A stretch of DNA of 64,000 nucleotides, taken from a virus (Duplodnaviria; Caudoviricetes). Positions 1-11,438 of the stretch are shown here, in pieces. Within the stretch, counting starts at the first letter, position 1, and each line of letters starts with the position of its first letter. The DNA lies in the IMG/VR virus record IMGVR_UViG_3300037501_000255. One strand, given 5' to 3'. The notes under the pieces were generated by a model. That model worked only from the letters and a program-made list of their open reading frames with translations. It did no database searches and was not told where the DNA came from. The position numbers and the translations under genes are program-made.

Positions 1-447
1 TGGCCCAGGGCTAGAGTCTGCAATGGTATCGAACAGTGCGAAGTGACGCTGATCGTCGCCAGCCTCACCAGAGATTCGACCGAAGGCGCGCATGGTGCCA
101 CCATCGACCGCACGATTCTCGACATTCCGATATCGACCCTCACGCTTGATCGGCGCACAGCGAGACTGGCGAATCTCGGATTCCATCCACTTCTGAATGG
201 AAGCGCGAATCCACTGCATCGCGAACGTGGGGAATGGACCTTTGGTGGGATCGAAGCGCTCAATCCCCCTGCACAGACCGAATACGCCCTCCTGAAAGGC
301 ATCCTCGTGCAGCTCCCTCGGGATACGCAAGAAGCGACGGATGACGAAGTGAATCAGGTTGTGATGATGAGCAATCAGCGCATTGCGCGTGGCATTGCAC
401 GGGTTGCCGAGATACTGAGTGAGGGCGTTGTCACGTTCAGTCGTCAT
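1..447 (-). CDS. Sigma-70 family RNA polymerase sigma factor (3' end runs off window)
   Basis: Not in ORF track. Hand translation from ATG at 447 (AAGGAG RBS): MTTERDNALTQYLG...RNALIAHHHNLIHFVIRRF...EDAFQEGVFGLCRGIERFDPTKGPFPTFAMQWIRASIQKW, matching sigma region 2 (DLxQEGxxGLxxAxExFDPxKG..F.TYAxxWIR). Confidence 0.88.
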   Translation of the reverse strand, partial: MTTERDNALTQYLGNPCNATRNALIAHHHNLIHFVIRRFLRIPRELHEDAFQEGVFGLCRGIERFDPTKGPFPTFAMQWIRASIQKWMESEIRQSRCAPIKREGRYRNVENRAVDGGTMRAFGRISGEAGDDQRHFALFDTIADSSPGP

Positions 448-617
448 TGCTGCTCTCCTTGGTGAGACGGATCATGGCCTTCGCCAATTGCCGCATCGCG
501 GTTTGCTGAAGTTCGCAACTCATGCGAACGCAATCCTCATCAGTCGCTTCGTCATTCAAGCGATAGATTTCCTCTTCCTTCACACTCTTCCATCAAAATC
601 TCTTCGAAAGATTTCAT
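437..617 (-). CDS. Small acidic hypothetical protein, apparently frameshifted
   Basis: GGAGG RBS + ATG at 617 (MKSFEEILM); acidic frame VKEEEIYRLNDEATDED...SSNDD* ends at 437 overlapping the sigma start; needs a 1-nt shift. Confidence 0.4.
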
Positions 618-631
618 GCTTACCTCCGTTG

Positions 632-661
632 TGGTGGGGCTTTTTCGGCTGACCCCAAGCC
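632..661 (-). ncRNA. H-type pseudoknot motif A, copy 1
   Basis: GGCUUGGGGUCAGCCGAAAAAGCCCCACCA: S1 GGCU/AGCC, S2 UGGGG/CCCCA, A-rich loop; 28/30 identical to copy at 2307-2336. Confidence 0.6.
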
Positions 662-670
662 TCGGCGATA

Positions 671-1096
671 CTAGCGAATCAGCCCGGTGGTGACAGGCGT
701 GACCGTCAGGGCGCTGCTGACCTTGCCGTTGCGCGTCTTGTTCGGCAGCTCTGCCAGCACCTTCTGGCGGAACTCTGCCTCGAATTCCTCAAGGCCGGAC
801 TGAGCAATCAGTGCAGACCTCATGTTGCGATCTGCCAGCACCACCTCATTGACCGCTTCGCGCATCACCTTGAGGAAGTGCGCGCGCTGCACACCCATCT
901 TCTTGAGAGCAAGGGCGACCGTGGGAATCAGCGGGATATCCACGGTGGGAGTGTAGGTCTCGTCAGCCGACACCGTGAGGGCTCCGCGCACCTCGATGGT
1001 GAACGGCTGCACCGTATGAGTGCCGGAAGTGATCTGGGTGCGGTCGGCCTTGACGGAGAGCTTCTCAAGGGCGAGCTTCTGGATTTCGGTGAGCAT
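671..1096 (-). CDS. Hypothetical protein
   Basis: 141 aa ORF with AGGAGG RBS, co-oriented in operon. Confidence 0.75.
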   Translation of the reverse strand: MLTEIQKLALEKLSVKADRTQITSGTHTVQPFTIEVRGALTVSADETYTPTVDIPLIPTVALALKKMGVQRAHFLKVMREAVNEVVLADRNMRSALIAQSGLEEFEAEFRQKVLAELPNKTRNGKVSSALTVTPVTTGLIR

Positions 1097-1120
1097 CGAT
1101 GCCTCCTGCAGTTGTCTGAG

Positions 1121-1183
1121 CGGACTGGCTCATCAGGCAGGGTAGTCCATGTCCCTGCGACGAGGCCGAAGCCTCGTTTCGCC
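1121..1183 (-). ncRNA. Hammerhead ribozyme, type II, with loop I/3'-tail pseudoknot
   Basis: GGC-GAAA-C-GAGGC-UUCG-GCCUC-GUC|GCAGGG-ACAUGGACUA-CCCUGC-CUGAUGA-GCC-AGUCCG: complete core (CUGAUGA, GAAA, GUC site), stems I-III all pair, loop GGACU pairs with tail AGUCC; cleavage between 1159 and 1158. Confidence 0.93.
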
Positions 1184-2242
1184 TCAGGCGAGTTCAAGCT
1201 CGCGCGAGCGCTTGGGTGCCTTGTACACGGCATCAGGTGCATCGGCGAGGAGGAAGTCCAGCGCCTTCTGATTCATCTTCTCCGCGACACCCCCACCGAA
1301 GAGGGCATCAAACTTGTTCGTGTCCGCACCCGACTGCTCGGTATTGCGGTAGTTGCGCTCGTGGGTGTTGTACTCGGTCACCGCATTGAGCAGAGCCCAG
1401 CGCGTACCAGTCACACCAGGGATGTGCGTTCCCTTGCCCATCATAGACAGGTGGAGAATCTCCTTCTGAATGTTCTCGGCACGAGTGACCGCCTTCGGAC
1501 CCTTGCCCTCCGTGGGGGCCATGGTCTCCAGGAAATCTCGGGTGTAGGCGGCATCCGCACGCAGACCGGCAAGCCACGTAGAGATCCGACGGAACTGCTC
1601 GGCTTCCTCCGAGGCCAGACCGAGAATCTCGCGCGCCTGCTGAATCTTGCGAGTCGGGTCACCAACGTGCTTGATGGTCACCCCATCCTCACCCGTGCGC
1701 AGGGCGAGGTTGAGTGTGTTCTGACACACGATGCGGACCGACGTGAACTTGCACTTCAACGAGTTATTGCCGTCGTGGCCGGTCGTGAGCATCAGGAACA
1801 TCTTGGTCTTATCACCAAGAATCGGCTCCAGCTCGTATCCATCACCAAGCAGCTGCGCCAGCAGCCAGATGCGCTTACCGCCATCGATCGAGCCGGCCGT
1901 CACGTAGCGCAGCTGACTAAGCTCGCCCACCGCCGAATCGAGGAAGTTGAATGCCTCGGAGTTCTGGATGGGAGTGTAGCGCTCGGTGCAGGTCCCGAGA
2001 ATCTTGTTGTCGCGATCTCGCACGATATGCAGGAGCTCCTCGCTCTTGAATACTCGACCGCCGATCTCGACAGCGGCCGGGTGGAGACCGACTCGCCAAT
2101 CGAGACCCGAGAGACGCACGGTCTCGGCAGCGCTCAGAGGGCTGGCACCACCATATCCGTAGAACTTCTCCGGATTCATGTGCCAGGGCATGTCCTTGGT
2201 GAAGTCACCAACCCACATCATCGATTCAACATTCGCGGCCAT
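1184..2242 (-). CDS. DUF932 / phage-plasmid LGT TIGR03299-type protein
   Basis: Motifs GSIDGGKRIW, LTTGHDG, TSVRIVCQNTL, GTRWALLNAVTEY. Confidence 0.9.
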   Translation of the reverse strand: MAANVESMMWVGDFTKDMPWHMNPEKFYGYGGASPLSAAETVRLSGLDWRVGLHPAAVEIGGRVFKSEELLHIVRDRDNKILGTCTERYTPIQNSEAFNFLDSAVGELSQLRYVTAGSIDGGKRIWLLAQLLGDGYELEPILGDKTKMFLMLTTGHDGNNSLKCKFTSVRIVCQNTLNLALRTGEDGVTIKHVGDPTRKIQQAREILGLASEEAEQFRRISTWLAGLRADAAYTRDFLETMAPTEGKGPKAVTRAENIQKEILHLSMMGKGTHIPGVTGTRWALLNAVTEYNTHERNYRNTEQSGADTNKFDALFGGGVAEKMNQKALDFLLADAPDAVYKAPKRSRELELA

Positions 2243-2306
2243 TGCGGACTCCTGACGGTAGCATCGCGGCTACTCGGTGTTGCCGGAGCCTATCCCGGCA
2301 TGGGGC

Positions 2307-2336
2307 TGGTGGGGCTTTTTTGGCTAACCCCAAGCC
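2307..2336 (-). ncRNA. H-type pseudoknot motif A, copy 2
   Basis: GGCUUGGGGUUAGCCAAAAAAGCCCCACCA, 7 nt after a UAG stop. Confidence 0.6.
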
Positions 2337-2343
2337 ACCATTT

Positions 2344-2844
2344 CTACTCTAGACCCATGACCTTGCGAGACATTCTGCGCAGGCGCTCGCCGATGAATTC
2401 AATATCTGCCTCAGAGAACGCCTCAGAGCACATGATGACCCAGAGGTTGTGCGTGCGGTCCGGCTCGAAGTATCGCTCCAATTCTCGATACCTCTGCGTT
2501 TTTGGATGGACCTTGGTGCCGACAATCAGCACATTCAGGTAGTTGCCGTGACCATATACTCGATCGCAGCGCTCCACGAGATGCGGGTCCAGCATGCGAG
2601 TGCGCTTCTGCTCGCTGTATGCTGCGCCGCAATTGATTTCCACATTGAGGAAGAAGCTGCGCCCATTCCGACGTGGGAGTGCGAACTGCAGGTCCATCCT
2701 ACGAGGGTGCCTTAGCTCACCGGGGTAGGTAACCTCCTCTCGGGTTTGGATTGCTGCAAGCACGGCACTCTCGCGCACTTGCGAAGGACGATGAATGAAG
2801 GGGCGCAGGCTTGTCGCAACAGATCGTTCGAGTCGTGTCAGCAT
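2344..2844 (-). CDS. Hypothetical protein (possible PD-(D/E)XK-like fold)
   Basis: 166 aa ORF; MDLQF...NVEIN spacing weakly resembles D..E-x-K. Confidence 0.6.
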   Translation of the reverse strand: MLTRLERSVATSLRPFIHRPSQVRESAVLAAIQTREEVTYPGELRHPRRMDLQFALPRRNGRSFFLNVEINCGAAYSEQKRTRMLDPHLVERCDRVYGHGNYLNVLIVGTKVHPKTQRYRELERYFEPDRTHNLWVIMCSEAFSEADIEFIGERLRRMSRKVMGLE

Positions 2845-3089
2845 GGCTCACCTCAGATGAGACCTTCGGTTGCGGACATCGGGGCGGGCGCCTTGACCTT
2901 ATCCTTCGGAGCTTTCTTCGTGAACACAGGATTATCGCGGTCAAAGAACCCAGCATCAACGCTAAGCTCAATCTCTGACCTTGAGAGCAATAATGAGGCT
3001 TTCGAGTTCGGGAACATTCTTCTTCTTGAGTACAATGCGACCCAGCATGGTTCGTCTCCATCGTATGCGTTACGGTATCAAACGAAGTA

Positions 3090-3173
3090 TGCAGGTGGCG
3101 GGACTCGAACCCGCACGGGTTTTCCCCACAGGAATCTAAATCCTGCGCGTGCTGCCAATTTCGCCACACCTGC
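3090..3173 (-). tRNA. trnL: tRNA-Leu (anticodon TAG), no encoded CCA
   Basis: GCAGGTG/CACCTGC acceptor stem, TGGCGAAATTGGCA D-arm, CAGGA-TTTAGAT-TCCTG anticodon arm, long variable arm, GGTTCGAGTCC T-arm. Confidence 0.95.
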
Positions 3174-3200
3174 ATGGAGGAGCTTACGCTCCTCTGGGAC

Positions 3201-3401
3201 TCAGTCGCCCCGGTACCTGCCGAACTCTGGTTCATCCTCATCATCCGCATCGACATCATCCATGTCTGCGGATACCAACTGGCCCGTTGCGGGGTCCACA
3301 GACAGGCCGGTATGAATGATGATTTCTGCCCCGTCCTCATCCACCATCCCATTCGGGAAATAGCGGCGAGCGAGGTCCTTCAGGTCTTTCACGGTTCTCA
3401 C
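3201..3401 (-). CDS. Small acidic hypothetical protein
   Basis: 66 aa ORF in tightly packed operon. Confidence 0.65.
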   Translation of the reverse strand: MRTVKDLKDLARRYFPNGMVDEDGAEIIIHTGLSVDPATGQLVSADMDDVDADDEDEPEFGRYRGD

Positions 3402-3408
3402 AGATTCC

Positions 3409-3636
3409 TCACTTCGGATTGTTCAGGCGATTCTTGATTGCTTCGATGGCTTCCACTCCCCACCGTGGGTTGCGGGCCACCGCATCTCGTGCATGATTCA
3501 GAGCTTCATTCATTGCCTCCAAGATGACATCTTCTGCTTCGCGAAATGCTTGCCTGTCACCATCGAGATGCAAGCGCTTGAGTAGCATGTGAGCGAACTG
3601 CTGAGGATCTTCGATGTCGCGGTCAGGTCGCTGCAT
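3409..3636 (-). CDS. Hypothetical protein
   Basis: MQRPDRD... start after GAGGAAG RBS, coupled to the ligase end. Confidence 0.65.
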   Translation of the reverse strand: MQRPDRDIEDPQQFAHMLLKRLHLDGDRQAFREAEDVILEAMNEALNHARDAVARNPRWGVEAIEAIKNRLNNPK

Positions 3637-4795
3637 TCTCTTCCTCCTTGTAGCGGTCACCCAGGACAGCGCGAACCTTGCTCTTAAAGAGCTTACAGAA
3701 TCCCGTGTCATTCATTTGCATGAATGCATTGTGGACCGTGTTGCTCTTGCCTGCACGAGTCGTGAACAGAGCTGCGGTGTAATCGAGCTTTCGGGCCTGA
3801 ATGGCGAGGGCGAATTCCTTCTGAGATTCAATCCATCGACACTCCTCGAACACCGCTTCATGCTGAGCGATGACGGACTGGATGATGTTCGACACTGCAT
3901 CCAAGTCATCCTTGTACTGCGGGAAATGCGTGGTAATTTCCTCGTAGTCATTCGACTTGGCGAGGAGAATCAGGTTGTTGATGCCCCGCAGACCGTCTTT
4001 GGCTCGGTGCAGCTGGACATACTGGTCGCTCTTGATCTTCACACGGTTGTAGTCGCCGTCACACGCCACGAAGCCCTCAAGCTCGGTGGCTGCATGCTTA
4101 TTGGCAAACTCTGCCACCTCCGCACCGCTGGCAAAGCGGTAACTCTTGGGAAGCGTGGCTCCATGACCGCAGACCTCAACCGCCTCTTCTTGCATGGTGC
4201 GGATGTTGCGGATGGCTAGCAGCTTGGCCGAAAATCCCTCATGGCGCACAACCACCATGTTGTGCTGGGAGCAGATCTCAAATGTCCAGGTTTCGTATGG
4301 CGGTTGCAGGTCCAGGGGAGAGGTTCCGTCCTCTCTCACGCCTACATTCCCCACACACCGATCAATCAACTCCTGCCAGGTGATGACCCCGGAGTTGACC
4401 GTATTGGTCCGCAGACCATCAGGCAGCTGGAACCGCGTCGAGTACTCGAACCGCTGGGTGTGAGGACTCCACCAGCGATTCACCATCGAGCCATCGATCT
4501 TCTCGTAGACCTTTGCAGTCCCCCAGTCGATTGGGGCAGCGTAGTGCTCGCCGAAGTTAAAGAACTTCGCCAGACCGAATGCGATGACATCGAAGGTTTT
4601 CGCATCCAGCACCAGCCCACGACACGCGTAACCGAAGGGCTCGGTCCACTTCACTGCCAACTGATCGTAGTCGAGAATGAGATGCAATCCATCGGACTTG
4701 CCACTGATGCCATGCTCAGCGTCGAACTGTTCGAGCGTTTTCCCTGAGCGCAGGTAGTCCTGCGTAGCTCGCAGGGCATCTTGGATGGTGAACAT
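3623..4795 (-). CDS. T4 Rnl1-like ATP-dependent RNA ligase
   Basis: Motif I YEKIDGS, ACRGLV, KFFN, TFEI, EGFV, RVKIKSDQY; start MFTIQ at 4795. Confidence 0.9.
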   Translation of the reverse strand: MFTIQDALRATQDYLRSGKTLEQFDAEHGISGKSDGLHLILDYDQLAVKWTEPFGYACRGLVLDAKTFDVIAFGLAKFFNFGEHYAAPIDWGTAKVYEKIDGSMVNRWWSPHTQRFEYSTRFQLPDGLRTNTVNSGVITWQELIDRCVGNVGVREDGTSPLDLQPPYETWTFEICSQHNMVVVRHEGFSAKLLAIRNIRTMQEEAVEVCGHGATLPKSYRFASGAEVAEFANKHAATELEGFVACDGDYNRVKIKSDQYVQLHRAKDGLRGINNLILLAKSNDYEEITTHFPQYKDDLDAVSNIIQSVIAQHEAVFEECRWIESQKEFALAIQARKLDYTAALFTTRAGKSNTVHNAFMQMNDTGFCKLFKSKVRAVLGDRYKEEENAAT

Positions 4796-4797
4796 TT

Positions 4798-4992
4798 CTA
4801 CCTCGGTTCCCAGTCGTTGCAGACTTGCACTTTCCTGCAACGCATGTTGTTATGAGTGCCATGACACTGCATCTCAGTAGAATGTGAGATGCAGCGCATG
4901 TTTGTATGCCACCAGTATGTGCCGCCGAAGATTGCCACTGTGATGGTAATCAGCAGTAGAACCACGCCGGCATTACTCAGTCGTTGCCTCAT
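4798..4992 (-). CDS. Small membrane protein with Cys-rich extracellular part
   Basis: MRQRLSNAGVVLLLITITVAIFGGTYWW TM helix followed by four Cys. Confidence 0.6.
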   Translation of the reverse strand: MRQRLSNAGVVLLLITITVAIFGGTYWWHTNMRCISHSTEMQCHGTHNNMRCRKVQVCNDWEPR

Positions 4993-5186
4993 CCGCCAGT
5001 CGAGCCGCCGGGCGTTCCGGACTTTCGATAACCTCGACGAGGGCGAGGTCGACGCCACCGATGCACTGGTAGCTCGTACCGCCATCGATAAACGTGCGGT
5101 TGGGGCGACAAGTCGTGGCGGTGTCGCGATTCCAGAACATCCAGACACTCCTTGCAGAGGATAATGTTGCGTGGTCTCTCACTCAT
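4973..5186 (-). pseudogene. Small phage Zn-binding protein (CxxC..ESxHRHD..CxC..IDGG family), frameshifted
   Basis: Frame 1 LCKECLDVLESRHRHD joins frame 2 CRPNRTFIDGGTSYQ; the usual FVxCxC segment is missing. Confidence 0.65.
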
Positions 5187-5319
5187 AACGAGGCCTCCGT
5201 GTGGTTTCTTCGGGAAACTCATCCTGTGTAGTACTTGACGAGCTTATCACCGTCAGGAACAGCCAGCGCCTCTTGTGCGATCTCGCTGAGGCTGGTCCGG
5301 CCAGGGTCGGGAATCTCAA

Positions 5320-5551
5320 TCATGCCAACGCCTCCCTCTTTTCTTTGGGAATCATATGTTCGCCCAGAGTCACATCTAGGAGAATGGCACGGGCCAGCGG
5401 GAAGGATGGATTCTTCTCGCAAGCATCAATGGCGCCCGTGCGTTTCAGGTAGGTCACCACCACTGTGGCGCCCATCCAGCGCGAGAGTGTCTGATGTCGA
5501 GTCTGCGCGTCTTTGGCTTCCATTTCAAAGCCCCATTCGGTTGATGAGCAT
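5320..5551 (-). CDS. Hypothetical protein (probable 1-nt homopolymer frameshift near 5525)
   Basis: AGGA RBS + ATG 5551 (MLINRMGL) joins ORF 5320-5523 if CTTTG is read as CTTG. Confidence 0.5.
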
Positions 5552-5557
5552 GTTATA

Positions 5558-5648
5558 TCCTGTTCGTAGGACTTCGGTCACCATCATTGCAGGCGACTGC
5601 GGCTACGCGATGTGGCTGCCGGCCCCATTGCCCAGGGGCCGTTTGGGT
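5558..5648 (-). ncRNA. Structured RNA motif B, copy 1 (pseudoknot + 3 hairpins, riboswitch-like)
   Basis: 91 nt, same length and loops as copy at 7712-7802, compensatory changes in two stems. Confidence 0.7.
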
Positions 5649-5894
5649 TCACTGTGGTGTACCGCACTCCCTCACGATGAGCGCATCACACTCCCTGCCC
5701 GGCTTCTTCTGGAAGCACTGCGTGCGATCCAGGAAGTCGCGAACGCACTGATCGCGCCTCATCCCCTCCACGCGAGTCTGCACCTCCGAGATGCCGCTGT
5801 ATGCGGCCTGTCCGACCTTGCGCGGATTTTGGAAGGCGAGCACGCCGAAAACTCCGATGACGATTCCGATGACGAGAGCAATGAACTTGTCCAT
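5649..5894 (-). CDS. Small membrane protein
   Basis: N-terminal TM helix, four Cys. Confidence 0.7.
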   Translation of the reverse strand: MDKFIALVIGIVIGVFGVLAFQNPRKVGQAAYSGISEVQTRVEGMRRDQCVRDFLDRTQCFQKKPGRECDALIVRECGTPQ

Positions 5895-5983
5895 ATTTCC
5901 TTCTCAGTCTGCCATGATGTCTGCGAAGAGTATCACCACGCCCCAGATGAACGTGGTGGTGGCAAAGAATGCTGCGATGTAAA

Positions 5984-6181
5984 TCATACCGAGTATTGCA
6001 TGCGATCCATGCGGTCGCGTGCCTCCAAGTATTCCAGCGTCACCACCTGAGTGAGCTGGTCGTTGCAGAGGTGGTCGAAATCATCGCCGAGACCCAGGAT
6101 GGAATTGCGGTCCTCGACCGGCGAATCATTCAGCGGGGTACCGTCAGGTTCGTGCATGTCGATGTTGATGAGCTTGTGCAT
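5984..6181 (-). CDS. Hypothetical protein
   Basis: 65 aa acidic ORF with GGAG RBS. Confidence 0.6.
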   Translation of the reverse strand: MHKLINIDMHEPDGTPLNDSPVEDRNSILGLGDDFDHLCNDQLTQVVTLEYLEARDRMDRMQYSV

Positions 6182-6386
6182 GATTCACTCCAGGTTGGTG
6201 GTTTTGGCGCCGTCCACAACGGACAAAGAACAGGGCACCATCTCACGCGCAACTTCTTCTGCGTAGTGTGTTGCTTACGGGGAGGTATGTTTCCGCCAGG
6301 ACTCCACACCATCCATAATGTCTTGCCCTGCTGCACACGCGGATGGGACACTTGCGCTCCTGCAAATCAGAGATCGTCCGTACGCA

Positions 6387-6821
6387 TCACTGCACCTCAC
6401 GAATGAACTTGCTGAGCTGCTCCTGCTCCAGCACACAGCCATTAGGGCTGCGGCTTGCGGAGAGCTGCGCGGCGGTCATCATCACCACACCGAAGTAGAT
6501 GTCACTGTCTACATCTAGGTCGTGGCTGCGCTGGGCCGCAACCTCAGCATGCGCCTTCTCGGCGAACCCATGCCAGTAAGTGTTGCCGTTGGGGTATTGT
6601 GTGCGGATCAGGAAGCATCCGCGCTCATCGGTTTGTGCGATCCTTTGGCTCATTTTCATTGTCCCTCGAAAGCGTTGACGGTCGGCGTAGTGCATCATGC
6701 TGCCGTCATGGCCCAGCACGAACACTACATCTAGAATCTGGTCTGCAGCGATGACCTCTCTCCCATGTTCACTTTTCTTGCGTGGATTTGGAAACGGCAC
6801 GCCGCAGTCGGCCGTGCTCAT
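6387..6821 (-). CDS. Hypothetical protein
   Basis: 144 aa ORF in operon. Confidence 0.6.
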   Translation of the reverse strand: MSTADCGVPFPNPRKKSEHGREVIAADQILDVVFVLGHDGSMMHYADRQRFRGTMKMSQRIAQTDERGCFLIRTQYPNGNTYWHGFAEKAHAEVAAQRSHDLDVDSDIYFGVVMMTAAQLSASRSPNGCVLEQEQLSKFIREVQ

Positions 6822-6961
6822 CCGAAGCTTCCAGCAACTTCCGACAGCAAATGTCCACCCAGGTTTTGTGCGAGAATGCTCGGCACTTCATGAAGGTCTT
6901 GCTTGCCTCCTCGAAATCCCTAAGTGCTTTGTTGAGCCGCTCTTCTGAGCGGGCGAGCGCA

Positions 6962-7264
6962 TCACTCATCATCATCCTCCTCGGGGAACAACTTGTCATC
7001 CTCCTCGGGGAACAACTTGTCCCATTCGGCAGGGGTCGTGCCGGTCATGATAAACTCACGCTCAGGTGGGGCGAGGAACGGAAATGCATCTTGTATGAGT
7101 GCACCGTTTACGTAGGACGAGATGGCCGTACACATCTTGCCGAAAGGATGGTCGAACACCATCTCCTTAGAGACGATCCCTGGGCCCATCAGGCTTCGAC
7201 CTTCGCGAACCACGATAGTGCGATCGGCGCCGTCGTGAAGCAGACGAAAAGTAGCAGGAAACAT
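6962..7264 (-). CDS. Conserved phage protein (LIQDAFPxL..EREFIxTG..WD motif)
   Basis: Start MFPATF after GGAGG; C-terminal KLFPEEDD twice. Confidence 0.75.
   Translation of the reverse strand: MFPATFRLLHDGADRTIVVREGRSLMGPGIVSKEMVFDHPFGKMCTAISSYVNGALIQDAFPFLAPPEREFIMTGTTPAEWDKLFPEEDDKLFPEEDDDE
6973..7021. repeat. 24-bp perfect tandem duplication
   Basis: catcctcctcggggaacaacttgt x2, encodes DKLFPEED x2. Confidence 0.9.
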
Positions 7265-7265
7265 C

Positions 7266-7706
7266 TCAGACCTCCTCGGGAAGTTGCACGGCCGAAGCCA
7301 TGCGCTTGATGCCTTCGAGCGGAACACCGTGCGTGTTGCGACGAGCGTACGTCTCGCACGCCTCGGGTGTGAACTCGCCCACCACCTCGAACACCACGTC
7401 GTACCCCATGGCACGAGCAAGCTTGATGTAGGGCTCGCGGTGCTCGGCACGGATGTTCGTGTTGTCCACGATCACCTGATCGACGCTGTCGGCGAGGGCG
7501 AGCGCGAACTTCTGGAAGTTCAGTGCGTGATTTTGCGTGAGCTTGCCCGGATTGAACCGGTAGACTCCGCCCTCCATGAAAAAGTCGTCCGTGGAACACA
7601 CCACGGTCCTAAGACCGAAATCCTCGCCCGCCTTGACCATCTTGGACACAGCAGTCGACTTGCCGGCGCCAGGAAGGCCGATCATAAGCACAGCAACCTT
7701 CGACAT
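7266..7706 (-). CDS. AAA_33 / polynucleotide-kinase-like P-loop kinase
   Basis: GLPGAGKST, STDDFF, VIVDNTN, RNTHGVP (N4BP2/PNK-type). Confidence 0.88.
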   Translation of the reverse strand: MSKVAVLMIGLPGAGKSTAVSKMVKAGEDFGLRTVVCSTDDFFMEGGVYRFNPGKLTQNHALNFQKFALALADSVDQVIVDNTNIRAEHREPYIKLARAMGYDVVFEVVGEFTPEACETYARRNTHGVPLEGIKRMASAVQLPEEV

Positions 7707-7711
7707 AGGAA

Positions 7712-7802
7712 CCCCGTTCGTGGGACTACGTTCCCCATCATTGCAGGGGAATACGGCTACATGATGTAGCTGCCGGCCCCATTACCCAGGGGCCGTTTGG
7801 GT
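7712..7802 (-). ncRNA. Structured RNA motif B, copy 2
   Basis: ACCCA-AAC-GGCCCC-UGGGU-AAU-GGGGCC pseudoknot, GCUAC/GUAGC, UUCCCC/GGGGAA, UCCC/GGGG hairpins. Confidence 0.7.
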
Positions 7803-8210
7803 TCACTTCTTGAGGATGGCGTCGAGCGGACGAGCGGCGGACCGGGCCTGCACCTCCTCGGCGCGCTGACGACGGACGAGGCTGATGGTCTGAGTCTTGA
7901 CCCAGCCGACGCACGGGGTGTTGAGGGGGAGGCGGATCGTGCGGGACTCCCCCTTGTCCATGGCATCCGGAACGGTGGTCACATCCGCGAAATTCATGTG
8001 CGGAATGACCCGCACGCACGCGATGGCACGGTGCCCGCCGCTGGGGAGCTGGACCACCGGACGGTCCGCCTCCGGGTCGTTGGCGGCGAACAAGACCGAG
8101 CTCAGGGGGCGGGTGAGGGGCTTGCCGCTGGTCTTATTCGCCGCCTCCTTCTGCTGCGTCTTGCTGATCTCGATGTGGCCGATGACGCGAGCGGTGTTGT
8201 TCTGGGACAT
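7803..8210 (-). CDS. Hypothetical protein
   Basis: Start MSQNN after AGGAG RBS. Confidence 0.7.
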   Translation of the reverse strand: MSQNNTARVIGHIEISKTQQKEAANKTSGKPLTRPLSSVLFAANDPEADRPVVQLPSGGHRAIACVRVIPHMNFADVTTVPDAMDKGESRTIRLPLNTPCVGWVKTQTISLVRRQRAEEVQARSAARPLDAILKK

Positions 8211-8250
8211 GTCTCTCTCCTGTATGCGCAAAGACCCTGCGCAAGGTGTT

Positions 8251-8324
8251 CCCGGACTTGGAACCGGGCTCCGGAGACTCTTTCCGGAGGGCCTTACTAA
8301 GAGTTCCCCCCTAGTCCTCGGTCA
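8251..8324 (-). ncRNA. Twister-like ribozyme candidate, copy 1
   Basis: GAG-GA/P1(GGAA loop)/UAA, P3, P4 CCCGG-UUCCAAGU-CCGGG; L4 UC pairs with GA after GAG. Confidence 0.6.
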
Positions 8325-8507
8325 ACGATCCCACGCCTTCCGACCACGCCGCTGGAACTTCCAATTACGCTGTTTTTCGCGGGTTTCGTCATCATATGCA
8401 TCCGCGAGGTTACGGGGGGTGCGCTTGCCACGCACGAACTCCCGAACCTCGGGCGCAGCGTTCTGAACCTTCTCGTTCTGGGACTTAGGACGACGCATCC
8501 AACCCAT
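8322..8507 (-). CDS. Small basic (Arg-rich) protein between the two twister-like RNAs
   Basis: 61 aa, RRPK..VRGKRTPRNLADAYDD, GGGAGA RBS. Confidence 0.7.
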   Translation of the reverse strand: MGWMRRPKSQNEKVQNAAPEVREFVRGKRTPRNLADAYDDETREKQRNWKFQRRGRKAWDR

Positions 8508-8557
8508 TGTCTTCTCCCAAATAAAAGGCCGTAAAATCTTGTTTTTGTTTATTTTTC

Positions 8558-8632
8558 CCGGGACTTGGGACCCGGCCCCTAAGAGTCTCCCAGGGGGGCC
8601 TTACTAGGGGTTTACCCCCTAGCCCTCGGTCA
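8558..8632 (-). ncRNA. Twister-like ribozyme candidate, copy 2
   Basis: GAG-GG/P1/UAA, P3, P4 CCGGG-UCCCAAGU-CCCGG; L4 CC pairs with GG after GAG (covaries with copy 1). Confidence 0.6.
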
Positions 8633-8818
8633 GCGGCGGGCCGGCAGGCCCACACCCAGACGCTCACGACGCCAGAAGAACCGGCGACGGATCGTCTCCT
8701 CGAACACGTCGGGCCGCTGGCCCTCGGGGACCGAGTAGGTCACACCCTCCACCGAGATCATGCCCTCGGACAGCGGCTTACAATCCTCGGTCCGACGGCG
8801 GATGAAGGTTGCGGTCAT
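8630..8818 (-). CDS. Hypothetical protein (first ORF of left arm)
   Basis: 62 aa ORF with AGGT RBS; stop overlaps twister-like copy 2. Confidence 0.6.
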   Translation of the reverse strand: MTATFIRRRTEDCKPLSEGMISVEGVTYSVPEGQRPDVFEETIRRRFFWRRERLGVGLPARR

Positions 8819-8829
8819 GTTGCACCTAT

Positions 8830-9555
8830 CTGCGTTCCCCCAGGGTTATCCCAGGGTCCTACGGCTTTAGACGTAGCTTAGGCCCATTAGTGCAATGCAC
8901 CGGCGTATCTCCTACTAGTCAGTCCCTCACCCTAAGGCATCCCCTAGGGTCAGTAGACACACCCCTACCGTGGACCGCTTCGGGCAGTCAAGCTAGTGTC
9001 ACACCCTTTCGGGCTAGCTTCCTTTTGTAGTGGCGTTTTCCTTTAGGTGCCAAAGGATGCGCGGTCACTTGTCTAGGCAGACAGACCGGCTCACACGCTA
9101 TGGCATCGGAGACTTGCCGGTGTCCCGATTAGCTTACTGTTTCGCTTTAGCCTTTACGTTTGGGAATAGATGGGGCTAGCTGGCAATTGGGTTAGGGAAG
9201 GAACCTAACCGCGTTGCTGCTTGCCCGGTTCGGCTAGGTAGCGTGGCCCGTATTGCCTCGCTTCCCTAACCCATCCTAACCCCTTTCGGTTAGGCGCTAG
9301 CTAGGGATCTCTCCCGTAAGCTAGTCGGGGCACCTTATTACGCCAGCCCTTTCGGACCGACTACGCACACGCCGCTTGCGCGGGATGCGTGGGGGATTCC
9401 GGGCTATCTAGACCCGCTCCTACCCTACTATACTTCCCTTTATGACCCGACCAGGTTAGTGAAACCGGATCTGATCCTATCGGGCTTGGGCCGTCCCGCT
9501 ACCGCGTTCCGCCCGTAGCGGTGTCACCCGCTAGCACCTTGTCATCGGCGCACCC
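8830..9555 (-). ncRNA. Large highly structured non-coding RNA (GOLLD/ROOL size class, unassigned)
   Basis: No long ORF; more than 12 hairpins including GNRA loops (GUCC-GAAA-GGGC, CCUAACC-GAAA-GG..GUUAGG, CCGC-GCAA-GCGG, GGGA-GAGA-UCCC, CCC-GAAA-GGG) and long-range GGGUUAGGGAAG/CUUCCCUAACCC. Confidence 0.65.
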
Positions 9556-9606
9556 TTTATTATGATTCAATCGGGTTAGTGAAAAGAGATCTAGATCTAG
9601 ATCTAG
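9436..9606 (-). promoter_or_regulatory. Duplicated promoter-like motif TTTCACTAACC-N8-TCATAA plus (GATCTA)3 palindromic array
   Basis: Two copies about 120 bp apart, each preceded by GATC-A/TAGATC; AGATCTAGATCTAGATCT at 9587-9604. Confidence 0.45.
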
Positions 9607-10228
9607 CGTACCTTATCGCACACATTCCTACATGTAGGAGGGGGTAGGGGGGTGTAGGTCCCACCGAGAATGCCTCCAAACTACCCAGTTACACTTTTTT
9701 CCACTCACAAACTCTATAGTATATCACTATCTTTTCTATAGTCTAGCGCTATCTAGGTACTGTGGGAGTCATCCGTAATTAAATCACACATATTTCCAAT
9801 AGCTTTCCCCTACCTTATACGGTTGCTCTCTTATATTAGCTACGTGGGCGGGTGGCTCTATGTGAAAAATACGGTTGGTCTAGGGATATGGGGGGGGGGG
9901 TGATGGTAGCTGTTGCGGGAGACCTGAGCCTATGCGTGAACGGTGGTATTGGGGCGGTTTTTGTCGTGATTTTAATAGGGCGGGAGATTCTGCTTTTCAG
10001 CTATATGATGATGTTATAATGGTGGGTTTGAATTCTTCCGGGGATTTGGTACGTGCCGGAGATTGTTATCCTATGGTGGGTATTTTTGTGTGTCATGGTA
10101 GTACTTTTTGTCAGGAATATTATCATGTTCAGCAGTGTGCAGCTGGATTCTATACGTAACACTTGGATGAGAGTGGGAGTATTATTTGGATTGAAGGCTA
10201 GGCTGGCCTAGATTTTGGTGGGAGGGGT

Positions 10229-11438
10229 ATGATATTGCGTTACGAGGATGGGTTAATTCGGGATATTTGGTCTGGGTCACGGACTTTGATTTTGTGGGAT
10301 TTATTAGAACGGTTGCATGTTGAAGCCCAGACTGGTTGGGCATTGGGGCAATTCGTTTGCGATTGGGATGCCTTTGGGGTTCGCAAGGCGGCTTTGGAGT
10401 TGGAAACCCGGCATGAATTTGTAGCGTTTTTGGGGCAATCGGTGAGGTAGAACATCCGGATCGTGAGTGGGTAGACCGCTACTACCATCGTAGGCTAACC
10501 TCTTCTGATATTTTAGATAGCGCGTTTTCGGTACAGATTACCGAGTCTGTGGTATATTTGCGGAGTTTGGTGGGCGGCTTACGCGATACTTTAAAAAATT
10601 TGGGAGATCGATTTCTATCGGCCGTTCGGGCGGGGCGTACTCATGGTCAGATAGCTGAAGCCACTTCTTTGGGTTGGACTTTTATAGTGCCAGATCGGAC
10701 GTTGGCGCTGAGCGTGCCGGAGTTGCCGTTAAAAGCTTCGGGTGCTACGGGCAGCTACAGCAATACCTCGTGGGAAACCGAACAGCGATTTGTGGAGTTG
10801 GTGAGTGCGCGGGTGGGTTTGCGATTCATCAGTGTTCCCAGTACGCAGGTGGTACACCGTGCGTATTATGCGCGAGTATTCAGTGAGTTAGCGGTACTCG
10901 CCTCGGTATTGGATGGCATAGCTACAGAGATGAGGCATTTGGCTATGCTGGGCTGGGCGAGGCGAGTCCTGGGTTTGGAGGCGGGCAGCGCGGTTCATCG
11001 GCTATGCCCCACAAAAATAATCCCGCAGTTTTCGAGAATATCACTGGATTATGCCGTTTGGTTCGCGGCTATATGTCTCCGGTTTTGGAGAATGTCGTAC
11101 TATGGGGCGAGCGCGACATTTCGCACTCTTCGGTTGAACGGGTTGTTTGGCCGGATGCCCTTCATGCACTGTGCACTGCGGTGGTACGACTAAACGTGGA
11201 GCTAGTACGTATGAATTGGAACGTAGACTTCATGCGTCAGGTGGTTGACGGGGCTCTTCGACAAGTTAATTCTAGCCGGGCACTTACACTGAACCGGGGA
11301 GCGATGGACTATCAGCGTGCCTATCGCGACGTACAATCTCGATGTAACGGCGATATGCCAGATGTGGTATTGGACTCTGTTCCCGTGCTAAACCTTGAAG
11401 ATCTTAAAAAGGCAGCGCGTAAAGCGCAAGGAGTATAA
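10229..11438 (+). CDS. purB: Adenylosuccinate lyase, split by two 1-nt frameshifts
   Basis: ETRHEFVAF, LTSSDILD, GRTHGQ, SGATG, STQV, GQRGSSAMPHKNNP signature, ERDISHSSVER across three frames; both shifts repaired by adding one G to a G-run. Confidence 0.88.

Follow-up and report, generated by a model that had tools for sequence, protein, structure and literature searches.

The question raised by this locus is what kind of RNA is encoded by two similar repeats that lie on either side of one small gene in a phage genome, and what they might do for the messages in which they would be transcribed. The DNA is a stretch of 64,000 nucleotides (nt) from the IMG/VR virus record IMGVR_UViG_3300037501_000255 (Duplodnaviria; Caudoviricetes), referred to here in its entirety as the window, for which three sequencing runs are listed, all of freshwater DNA. 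An initial annotation of positions 8251-8632 had described a tandem pair of twister-type ribozymes with twister-sister features, possibly a new permuted subclass, on both sides of a 61-codon open reading frame (ORF), designated p61. Judged by conservation and covariation, the repeats are twister ribozymes of type P5 which carry a P3 stem. Our preferred reading, to which we give a probability of roughly 75%, is that they are functional ribozymes in a polycistronic phage messenger RNA (mRNA) read from the minus strand and would cut that transcript into single-gene RNAs. The window has phage-like gene content (a PhuZ-like tubulin, ribonucleotide reductase, a DnaB-like helicase and PhoH), and contigs bearing p61 reach 368 kb, a jumbo-phage-sized genome; the ribozymes are placed in the GC-richer arm of the window, where the genes are on the minus strand.

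Two direct repeats of approximately 72 nt, located 307-308 nt apart, were found which together with short flanks form an alignment of 97 columns with a mean column identity of 84%. The RNA strand is the minus strand, on which copy 2 lies at 8629..8558 and copy 1 at 8321..8251. The window was screened against Rfam at the gathering threshold, which returned one transfer RNA (tRNA) and no ribozyme, while a permissive Rfam scan of 8100-8800 returned two matches to Twister-P5 (RF02684), both on the minus strand only. The match at copy 2 spans 8559-8630 (36.4 bits, E 6.7e-6) and that at copy 1 spans 8252-8322 (30.6 bits, E 2e-4), against a gathering cut-off of 37.6 bits, and Twister-P5 was the best clan member at both sites; comparison with the Rfam twister models, proposed as a check alongside the annotation, thus gave a sub-threshold match at both sites. 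A covariance model (designated R2) was built from 65 metagenome sequences only, with the window sequences excluded, and was run over both strands of the whole window with filters off. Exactly these two sites were recovered, copy 2 with 83.0 bits (E 2e-19) and copy 1 with 67.4 bits (E 1.7e-15), the next best score in the window being 10.3 bits. The repeats are real and far beyond chance, and the annotated tandem of twister-type ribozymes is upheld by both the Twister-P5 and the R2 matches.

Both copies are built to one plan, given here in the 5' to 3' direction of the minus strand. Immediately after the UGA stop codon of an upstream ORF (8632-8630 for copy 2; 8324-8322 for copy 1) follow the P2' strand CC (8629-8628; 8321-8320), the L1 segment (GAGGG at 8627-8623; GAGGA at 8319-8315) and the P1 hairpin (8622-8604; 8314-8297, the latter with two G.U pairs). 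Cleavage is predicted by homology, from the U^AA conserved in the Rfam and covariance-model alignments, at U8603^A8602 in copy 2 and U8296^A8295 in copy 1, the third base of the motif being A8601 and A8294, respectively. The chain continues with the P2 strand GG (8600-8599; 8293-8292), the L2 segment CC (8598-8597; 8291-8290) and the P3 hairpin (8596-8576; 8289-8269), and ends with P4 (8575-8571 paired with 8562-8558; 8268-8264 paired with 8255-8251), which encloses L4 (UCCCAAGU at 8570-8563; UUCCAAGU at 8263-8256). P1 and P3 are thus loop-closed, and the RNA enters at P2' and exits after P4, which is a circular permutation with its termini at the P5 position; a conserved P5 stem was looked for in the flanks and none was seen. 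The core nucleotides (the U-A step with its conserved A, the L1 guanine and the U..CCAAG of L4) are present in both copies. Two annotated features, the U^AA after a closed P1 hairpin and an 8-nt L4 (UYCCAAGU), were accordingly found in each of them, but a 4-bp P2 (GACC/GGCC) with a C-A mismatch was not: the GA is part of the UGA that ends the upstream ORF, which leaves CC/GG as the paired bases.

The two copies were compared stem by stem. Their differences were found to be compensatory in P3 (U-A/C-G and G-C/U-A), in P4 (C-G/G-C) and in the pseudoknot T1 (GAGGA with UUCC versus GAGGG with UCCC), as had been annotated; the compensation also claimed for P1 did not stand, since the change there is on one side only, from G.U to G-C. 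The minimum free energy fold of each minus-strand copy recovers P2, P1, P3 and P4, and the plus strands fold less well. The G.U pairs are possible on the minus strand only, a further argument that this is the strand of the RNA.

Relatives were collected through pattern scans of IMG/VR and of metagenome contigs, followed by covariance-model searches, and 189 matches were obtained at E <= 1e-3; loose DNA patterns gave mainly chance matches. Among GTDB genomes the covariance model confirmed a single one of 35 pattern matches, so that the family is essentially absent from reference prokaryote genomes. Covariation was assessed on an alignment of 124 rows, 108 of them distinct, which is fitted to the stems of the model, so that its pair counts are somewhat inflated. 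Standard pairs were formed in 93% of cells (P1 99.0%, P2 100%, P3 94.3% and P4 98.7%), and changes on both sides were seen for 7/7 pairs of P1, 2/2 of P2, 6/6 of P3 and 4/5 of P4. The observed pairing values were reached by 0 of 500 shuffles, and the signal collapsed when partners were shifted. The conserved core positions of the relatives are largely fixed by the search pattern, and their invariance in that set is not independent evidence. T1, on the other hand, lies outside the covariance model, and its variable pair was left free by the search pattern; among the 108 distinct sequences this pair is G:C in 89 and A:U in 19, with no mismatch, and the remaining two T1 pairs are standard in 108/108 and 107/108. 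Both states of the variable pair occur in the window (A:U in copy 1 and G:C in copy 2). Covariation in additional homologues, which had likewise been named as a check, was found in P1, P3, P4 and T1 across these 108 distinct relatives.

The same behaviour was observed in individual loci. In contig L185, a relative of 84% identity, an orthologous ribozyme starts directly after the UGA of the p62 homologue (p62 being the ORF upstream of copy 2), and its P1 letters are wholly different yet still paired. A further twister, in contig L289 (1044-1122, plus strand), stands after a p61 homologue and is of the canonical kind, with P2 UGCA/UGC, a GC:GC T2 and a P3; it displays another compensatory T1 change, L1 GAUGG with L4 UCCAAAGC. 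Of 95 locus-strands, 38 contained arrays of 2-6 copies, and the median spacing within arrays was 528 nt.

The topology of the copies corresponds to the one described as type P5 (PMC5408937), given that P1 and P3 are closed by loops. With type-P5 twisters (RF02684; the class of Roth et al. 2014 as described in PMC5408937) they share the loop-closed P1 and P3, the chain ends at the P5 position, L1 GAGGR, U^AA, L4 U-Y-C-C-A-A-G, a covarying T1 of three pairs and an optional P3 stacked beside the second pseudoknot, T2. They differ from the class in a P2 of merely 2 bp (CC/GG), in having no evident P5 stem and in a T2 made of one C-G pair and a C.U opposition instead of the conserved GC:GC. The likeness to twister-sister (RF02681) comes down to a vague resemblance of the P4 loop, one which the literature describes too (PMC6154101, PMC5408937). 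Twister-sister has been described as giving no evidence of pseudoknot formation (PMC5408937) and as cutting the loop strand opposite to that cut by twister (PMC5408937, PMC6154101), whereas in the window family T1 covaries and the strand cut by twister has kept its U^AA site; for these reasons the copies are not taken to be twister-sister. In five viral genomes from IMG/VR with 22 Twister-P5 matches, the twister-sister model gave 0 matches, in a search run without a positive control. The annotated twister-sister features are therefore not supported.

The annotation had gone further and suggested a new permuted subclass. More broadly, the elements might be a new subclass that is either an intermediate of twister and twister-sister or a new permutation, and that would have a different active-site architecture. 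The replacement of the L2 'GC' by CC and of the L4 'GC' by GU, the P2 of just 2 bp and the Rfam scores under the gathering cut-off could all be accommodated by such a proposal. It is opposed by the presence of T1 and of every conserved twister core nucleotide, by the contrast between the twister-sister and Twister-P5 counts in the genomes of relatives, and by a topology that is already on record as type P5 (PMC5408937). In addition, 13 relatives in 20 loci and 13 of the 22 matches in the five viral genomes score at or above the Twister-P5 gathering score, and those that do so include sequences with GGCC...AAGU features like those of the window copies, while P3-less relatives in the lineage have a standard GC:GC or AC:GU T2, so that the forms intergrade. 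Neither a twister-sister hybrid nor a new permutation is supported by these comparisons; the idea is largely refuted and retains next to no probability.

The genes around the copies are laid out in a very regular way. Upstream of copy 2 lies p62 (8630..8818, minus strand), an ORF of 62 codons with an 84%-identical homologue (P0003), whose UGA abuts the first paired C of the ribozyme. Between the copies lies p61 (8322..8507, minus strand), an Arg/Lys-rich ORF of 61 codons which has an ATG at 8507 preceded by a Shine-Dalgarno sequence, GGGAG, at 8518-8514, and whose UGA abuts copy 1. Downstream of copy 1 follows p135 (7803..8210, minus strand), an ORF of 135 codons whose ATG at 8210 is 40 nt after P4 and is preceded by the Shine-Dalgarno sequence GGAGAGAG at 8220-8213. 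The window ribozymes thus directly adjoin the upstream stop codon, and 40-51 nt lie between their ends and the start codon that follows. In 151 distinct contexts, an ORF stop lay at most 12 nt upstream in 106; it lay within 3 nt in 86, and in 45 its last base was nt -1, the position immediately before the ribozyme. The next start codon followed at a median of 30 nt after P4.

Homologues of p61 were identified by tblastn at 44-56% identity in six loci (L242, L299, L289, L271, L214 and L210), and in every one of them a twister lies some 20-50 nt before the gene. The conservation of p61 in these loci indicates that it is a real gene, and the statement in the annotation that the ribozymes bracket a real small gene is thereby borne out. 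Homologues of p135 were found by the same means in the same six loci (L299, L242, L271, L210, L214 and L289) at 38-52% identity, with a twister preceding them in 5 of 6, namely those with enough upstream sequence (L289 is too short). A tblastn search of the loci that the ribozyme pattern had retrieved was the sole source of these p61 and p135 homologues: IMG/VR locus searches seeded with the p135 and p61 proteins returned nothing, in a word-indexed protein search p61 retrieved itself only and p62 one relative, and no DNA match to the window was found in the phage collection.

The gene order in the relatives (L299, L242, L214, L271, L210 and L289) is twister-p135-twister-p61, as opposed to twister-p61-twister-p135 in the window (7803-8632). 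A CUAG...CUAG base of P1 is common to 5 of the 7 twisters which precede p61. The loci taken together suggest that 'ribozyme + gene' cassettes may move as units. Near arrays, 150 ORFs of at least 90 amino acids on the strand of the ribozymes were compared with Pfam; the most frequent families were RadC (5), DUF932 (3), AAA_5 (3), AAA_33 (2) and VWA_2 (2), and most of these ORFs had no Pfam family. A match to the type II hammerhead ribozyme was also observed in the window, at 1119-1184 on the minus strand (33 bits against a gathering score of 37, E 1.2e-3); it begins at the last stop-codon base of a DUF932 gene (1184-2242, minus strand) and so abuts a stop codon as the twisters do.

According to the proposed role, both copies would be transcribed from the minus strand within a polycistronic phage mRNA, and each would fold during transcription of the operon via P1, P2, P3 and P4 together with the pseudoknots T1 and T2. 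Self-cutting between U and A at 8603/8602 and 8296/8295 would split p62, p61 and p135 into single-gene RNAs, of which the upstream product at each site would end in a P1 hairpin with a 2',3'-cyclic phosphate and the downstream product would carry a 5'-OH and open with two hairpins, P3 and P4; these ends follow the established chemistry of twister (PMC8782182, PMC5408937). Ends of this kind might shield the single messages and insulate them from one another. Cleavage at both sites would release an RNA of 307 nt (8296..8602, minus strand), a length that had been annotated correctly and that results by arithmetic from the two predicted sites. This RNA would consist of a 5'-OH end, the P3/P4 hairpins of copy 2, a leader and p61, and would terminate in copy 1's P1 hairpin, its 3' end bearing a 2',3'-cyclic phosphate. 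Gene-by-gene processing of mRNA is considered the best reading since such ribozyme arrays are common in viral contigs. Transcript processing has been proposed for bacterial twisters and hammerheads, with the published view that cleavage itself matters rather than a particular motif (PMC6765202), and the stop-abutting type II hammerhead in the same arm fits that view. Between the arm genes no promoter-like or terminator-like site was found on the minus strand.

Several observations weigh against this reading. Both copies are under the Rfam gathering cut-off, by 1.2 and 7 bits; their folding-energy z-scores are modest (about -1.1), and energy alone proves nothing; and the benefit that processing might bring, in the form of stability or insulation of messages, is drawn solely from the anatomy of the locus. 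The most specific point concerns T2, in which canonically the conserved GC of L2 pairs with the GC of L4 (PMC5408937). In both copies the CC of L2 is opposite the GU with which L4 ends, leaving one C-G pair and a C.U opposition, and the annotation was right to list the canonical L2 'GC' as absent. When natural twisters were assayed in high throughput, a single imperfection in the T2 pseudoknot brought the fraction cleaved down from a mean of 0.76 to one of 0.53 (PMC11662667).

A rival view is that the copies are weak or dead relics of ribozymes, kept as structured spacers (protective hairpins) or as repeats for cassette recombination. It draws on a T2 imperfection of a kind that lowers activity on average (PMC11662667), on the two G.U pairs in P1 and the lower score of copy 1, and on the order of p61 and p135, which is swapped between the window and six relatives with the twister kept upstream wherever the available sequence extends that far, as recombination between repeats could bring about. 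It is countered by a strictly conserved core and T1 in more than 100 distinct sequences whose stems vary with compensation, which is the signature of selection on the fold, and by the distribution of the T2 variant itself, which is the majority state among members with a P3. A 2-bp T2 was missing in any register in 95 of 112 P3-bearing sequences (mostly C.U, with some U.C where L4 ends in GC) and present (GC:GC, AC:GU or GC:GU) in 23 of 27 P3-less ones, these sequences being related to one another so that the counts are not independent events. The alternation of C.U and U.C hints at a tolerated pyrimidine-pyrimidine pair rather than at decay. It has been suggested by others that an extended P3 might stabilise the T2 pseudoknot by stacking (PMC11662667), and the weakening of T2 almost only when P3 is present agrees with that suggestion. 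A purine at nt -1 which would pair with the L4 U and so rescue T2 was also considered and rejected: nt -1 is A in 73 and G in 41 of the 124 rows, is in many contexts the last base of TAA, TGA or TAG, and has no clear covariation with L4. On balance the window copies are likely to self-cleave, and their being relics is regarded as unlikely.

Two other explanations accept cleavage and give it a different purpose. In one, the ribozyme would be a translation-coupled switch, as a ribosome terminating on the upstream ORF would cover P2', L1 and part of P1 and block folding, and cleavage would then report or depend on upstream translation. The footprint argument is our own, and it is in keeping with the close spacing described above (of the 151 contexts, 45 have the last stop base at nt -1 and 86 have it at most 3 nt away, both window copies included), but about 30% of matches have no adjacent ORF end, close spacing may merely reflect genome compaction, and twisters are among the fastest self-cleavers (PMC5408937), such that cutting between ribosome passages would be expected. 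Such a switch is considered very improbable.

In the other, cutting would be followed by rejoining: ribozyme-cut messages, notably that of p61, would be 5'-phosphorylated by a phage kinase and then re-ligated or circularised by an Rnl1-type ligase or the host RtcB, or the 307-nt RNA would be closed by a reverse twister reaction. The proposal is prompted by a pair of ribozymes of one class on both sides of one small gene, whose products should carry 5'-OH and 2',3'-cyclic phosphate ends, and by two enzymes encoded in the same arm. One is a P-loop kinase of 146 amino acids (7266-7706, minus strand), for which the kinase domain of T4 polynucleotide kinase (Pnk; residues 4-138 versus 3-141) is the best relative of solved structure and which has no phosphatase domain. 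The other is an RNA ligase-like protein of 405 amino acids (3623-4840, minus strand) that is closest to T4 RNA ligase 1 (Rnl1). A Pnk/Rnl1 pair has a well-known alternative role in phages, that of tRNA repair. Six other loci (L210, L199, L299, L245, L008 and L271) encode homologues of the kinase, at 33-61% identity, no more than a few kb from twisters, and p61 is bracketed in L289 as well. Bracketing is, however, generic to arrays, where a ribozyme stands before almost all genes, and no twister was found after p61 in L299, L242 and L214 within the available sequence. The kinase lacks the phosphatase domain that would be required to open the cyclic phosphate for an Rnl1-type ligase, and neither an RNA ligase nor RtcB is in the top 25 Pfam families of the 150 ORFs near arrays.

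The junction that rejoining would create was also considered. The hybrid of the 3' half of copy 2 and the 5' half of copy 1 would keep P2, but it would set UCCC, from the copy 2 L4, against GAGGA, the copy 1 L1, and so contain an A.C mismatch in T1, unlike the T1 pair within each copy, which covaries perfectly. In arrays, 66 of 76 adjacent pairs would give a matching T1 hybrid, which is near the expectation from shared ancestry and base frequencies. The annotated notion of a special circularisation substrate is not supported, given the generic bracketing and the mismatched junction, and a cut-and-rejoin cycle is judged quite unlikely; if true, it would give a DNA phage stable mRNA in circular or re-joined form. 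The bracketed p61 can also be compared with the engineered 'Tornado' design, in which a unit is flanked by twisters. Ribozyme-flanked circular RNAs occur among viroid-like RNAs and retrozymes (PMC4918200, PMC7761336), which have in common with the locus two self-cleavers flanking a unit, with 5'-OH and 2',3'-cyclic phosphate ends. The unit here differs in being an ordinary operon gene of a DNA phage, one of many in arrays, between two copies that are not interchangeable in T1.

Processing of the transcript by functional type-P5 twisters is therefore retained as the preferred reading, and it places the locus beside systems already on record. Twister ribozymes, the type-P5 permutation, an optional P3 and occurrence beside hammerheads near phage genes have all been described, and the locus illustrates a known arrangement well and does not define a new class of ribozyme. 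With the ribozyme-punctuated operons of phages and prophages (PMC6765202, PMC8782182) it shares several self-cleavers in one arm (two twisters and a type II hammerhead), surrounding small phage genes of unknown function and a proposed polycistronic processing. It is set apart from them by a jumbo-phage-sized genome, by a very regular layout of stop codon, ribozyme, about 30-50 nt and start codon, and by a Pnk-type kinase and an Rnl1-type ligase in the same arm. What is added to the known arrangement is this stop-to-start regularity, the P3-linked weakening of T2 and the neighbouring enzymes of RNA-end processing. As the biological role of bacterial and phage twisters is still open (PMC6765202, PMC5408937), the locus could serve as a clean test case, with two twisters and a hammerhead each at a stop codon and with conserved p61 and p135 downstream; that the T4-Pnk-like kinase and the Rnl1-like ligase of the arm act on the kind of RNA ends which ribozymes produce adds to this value. 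The comparative set likewise reveals a natural pattern, in which a T2 reduced to one Watson-Crick pair and a pyrimidine-pyrimidine opposition occurs almost only together with P3.

Some features of the surrounding DNA were also noted. The GC content switches from about 57% to 45% at window 9560-10230. This switch is crossed at 100% identity by a Logan contig (L186, equal to window 5822-11007), so that the join is not confined to this assembly, although the sequencing run behind L186 may be of the same sample; a Joint Genome Institute (JGI) contig (L187) terminates within the switch, at window 9662. An ORF-free stretch lies upstream of p62 (8830-9695, minus strand) and matched no Rfam family in a permissive scan of 1-10300. 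It has 84% identity over 1082 nt with contig L185, which comes from another run, and this conservation points to a real conserved element. The same arm also encodes a tRNA-Leu with anticodon TAG and a long variable arm (3089-3174, minus strand), located between the RNA ligase gene and the DUF932 gene.

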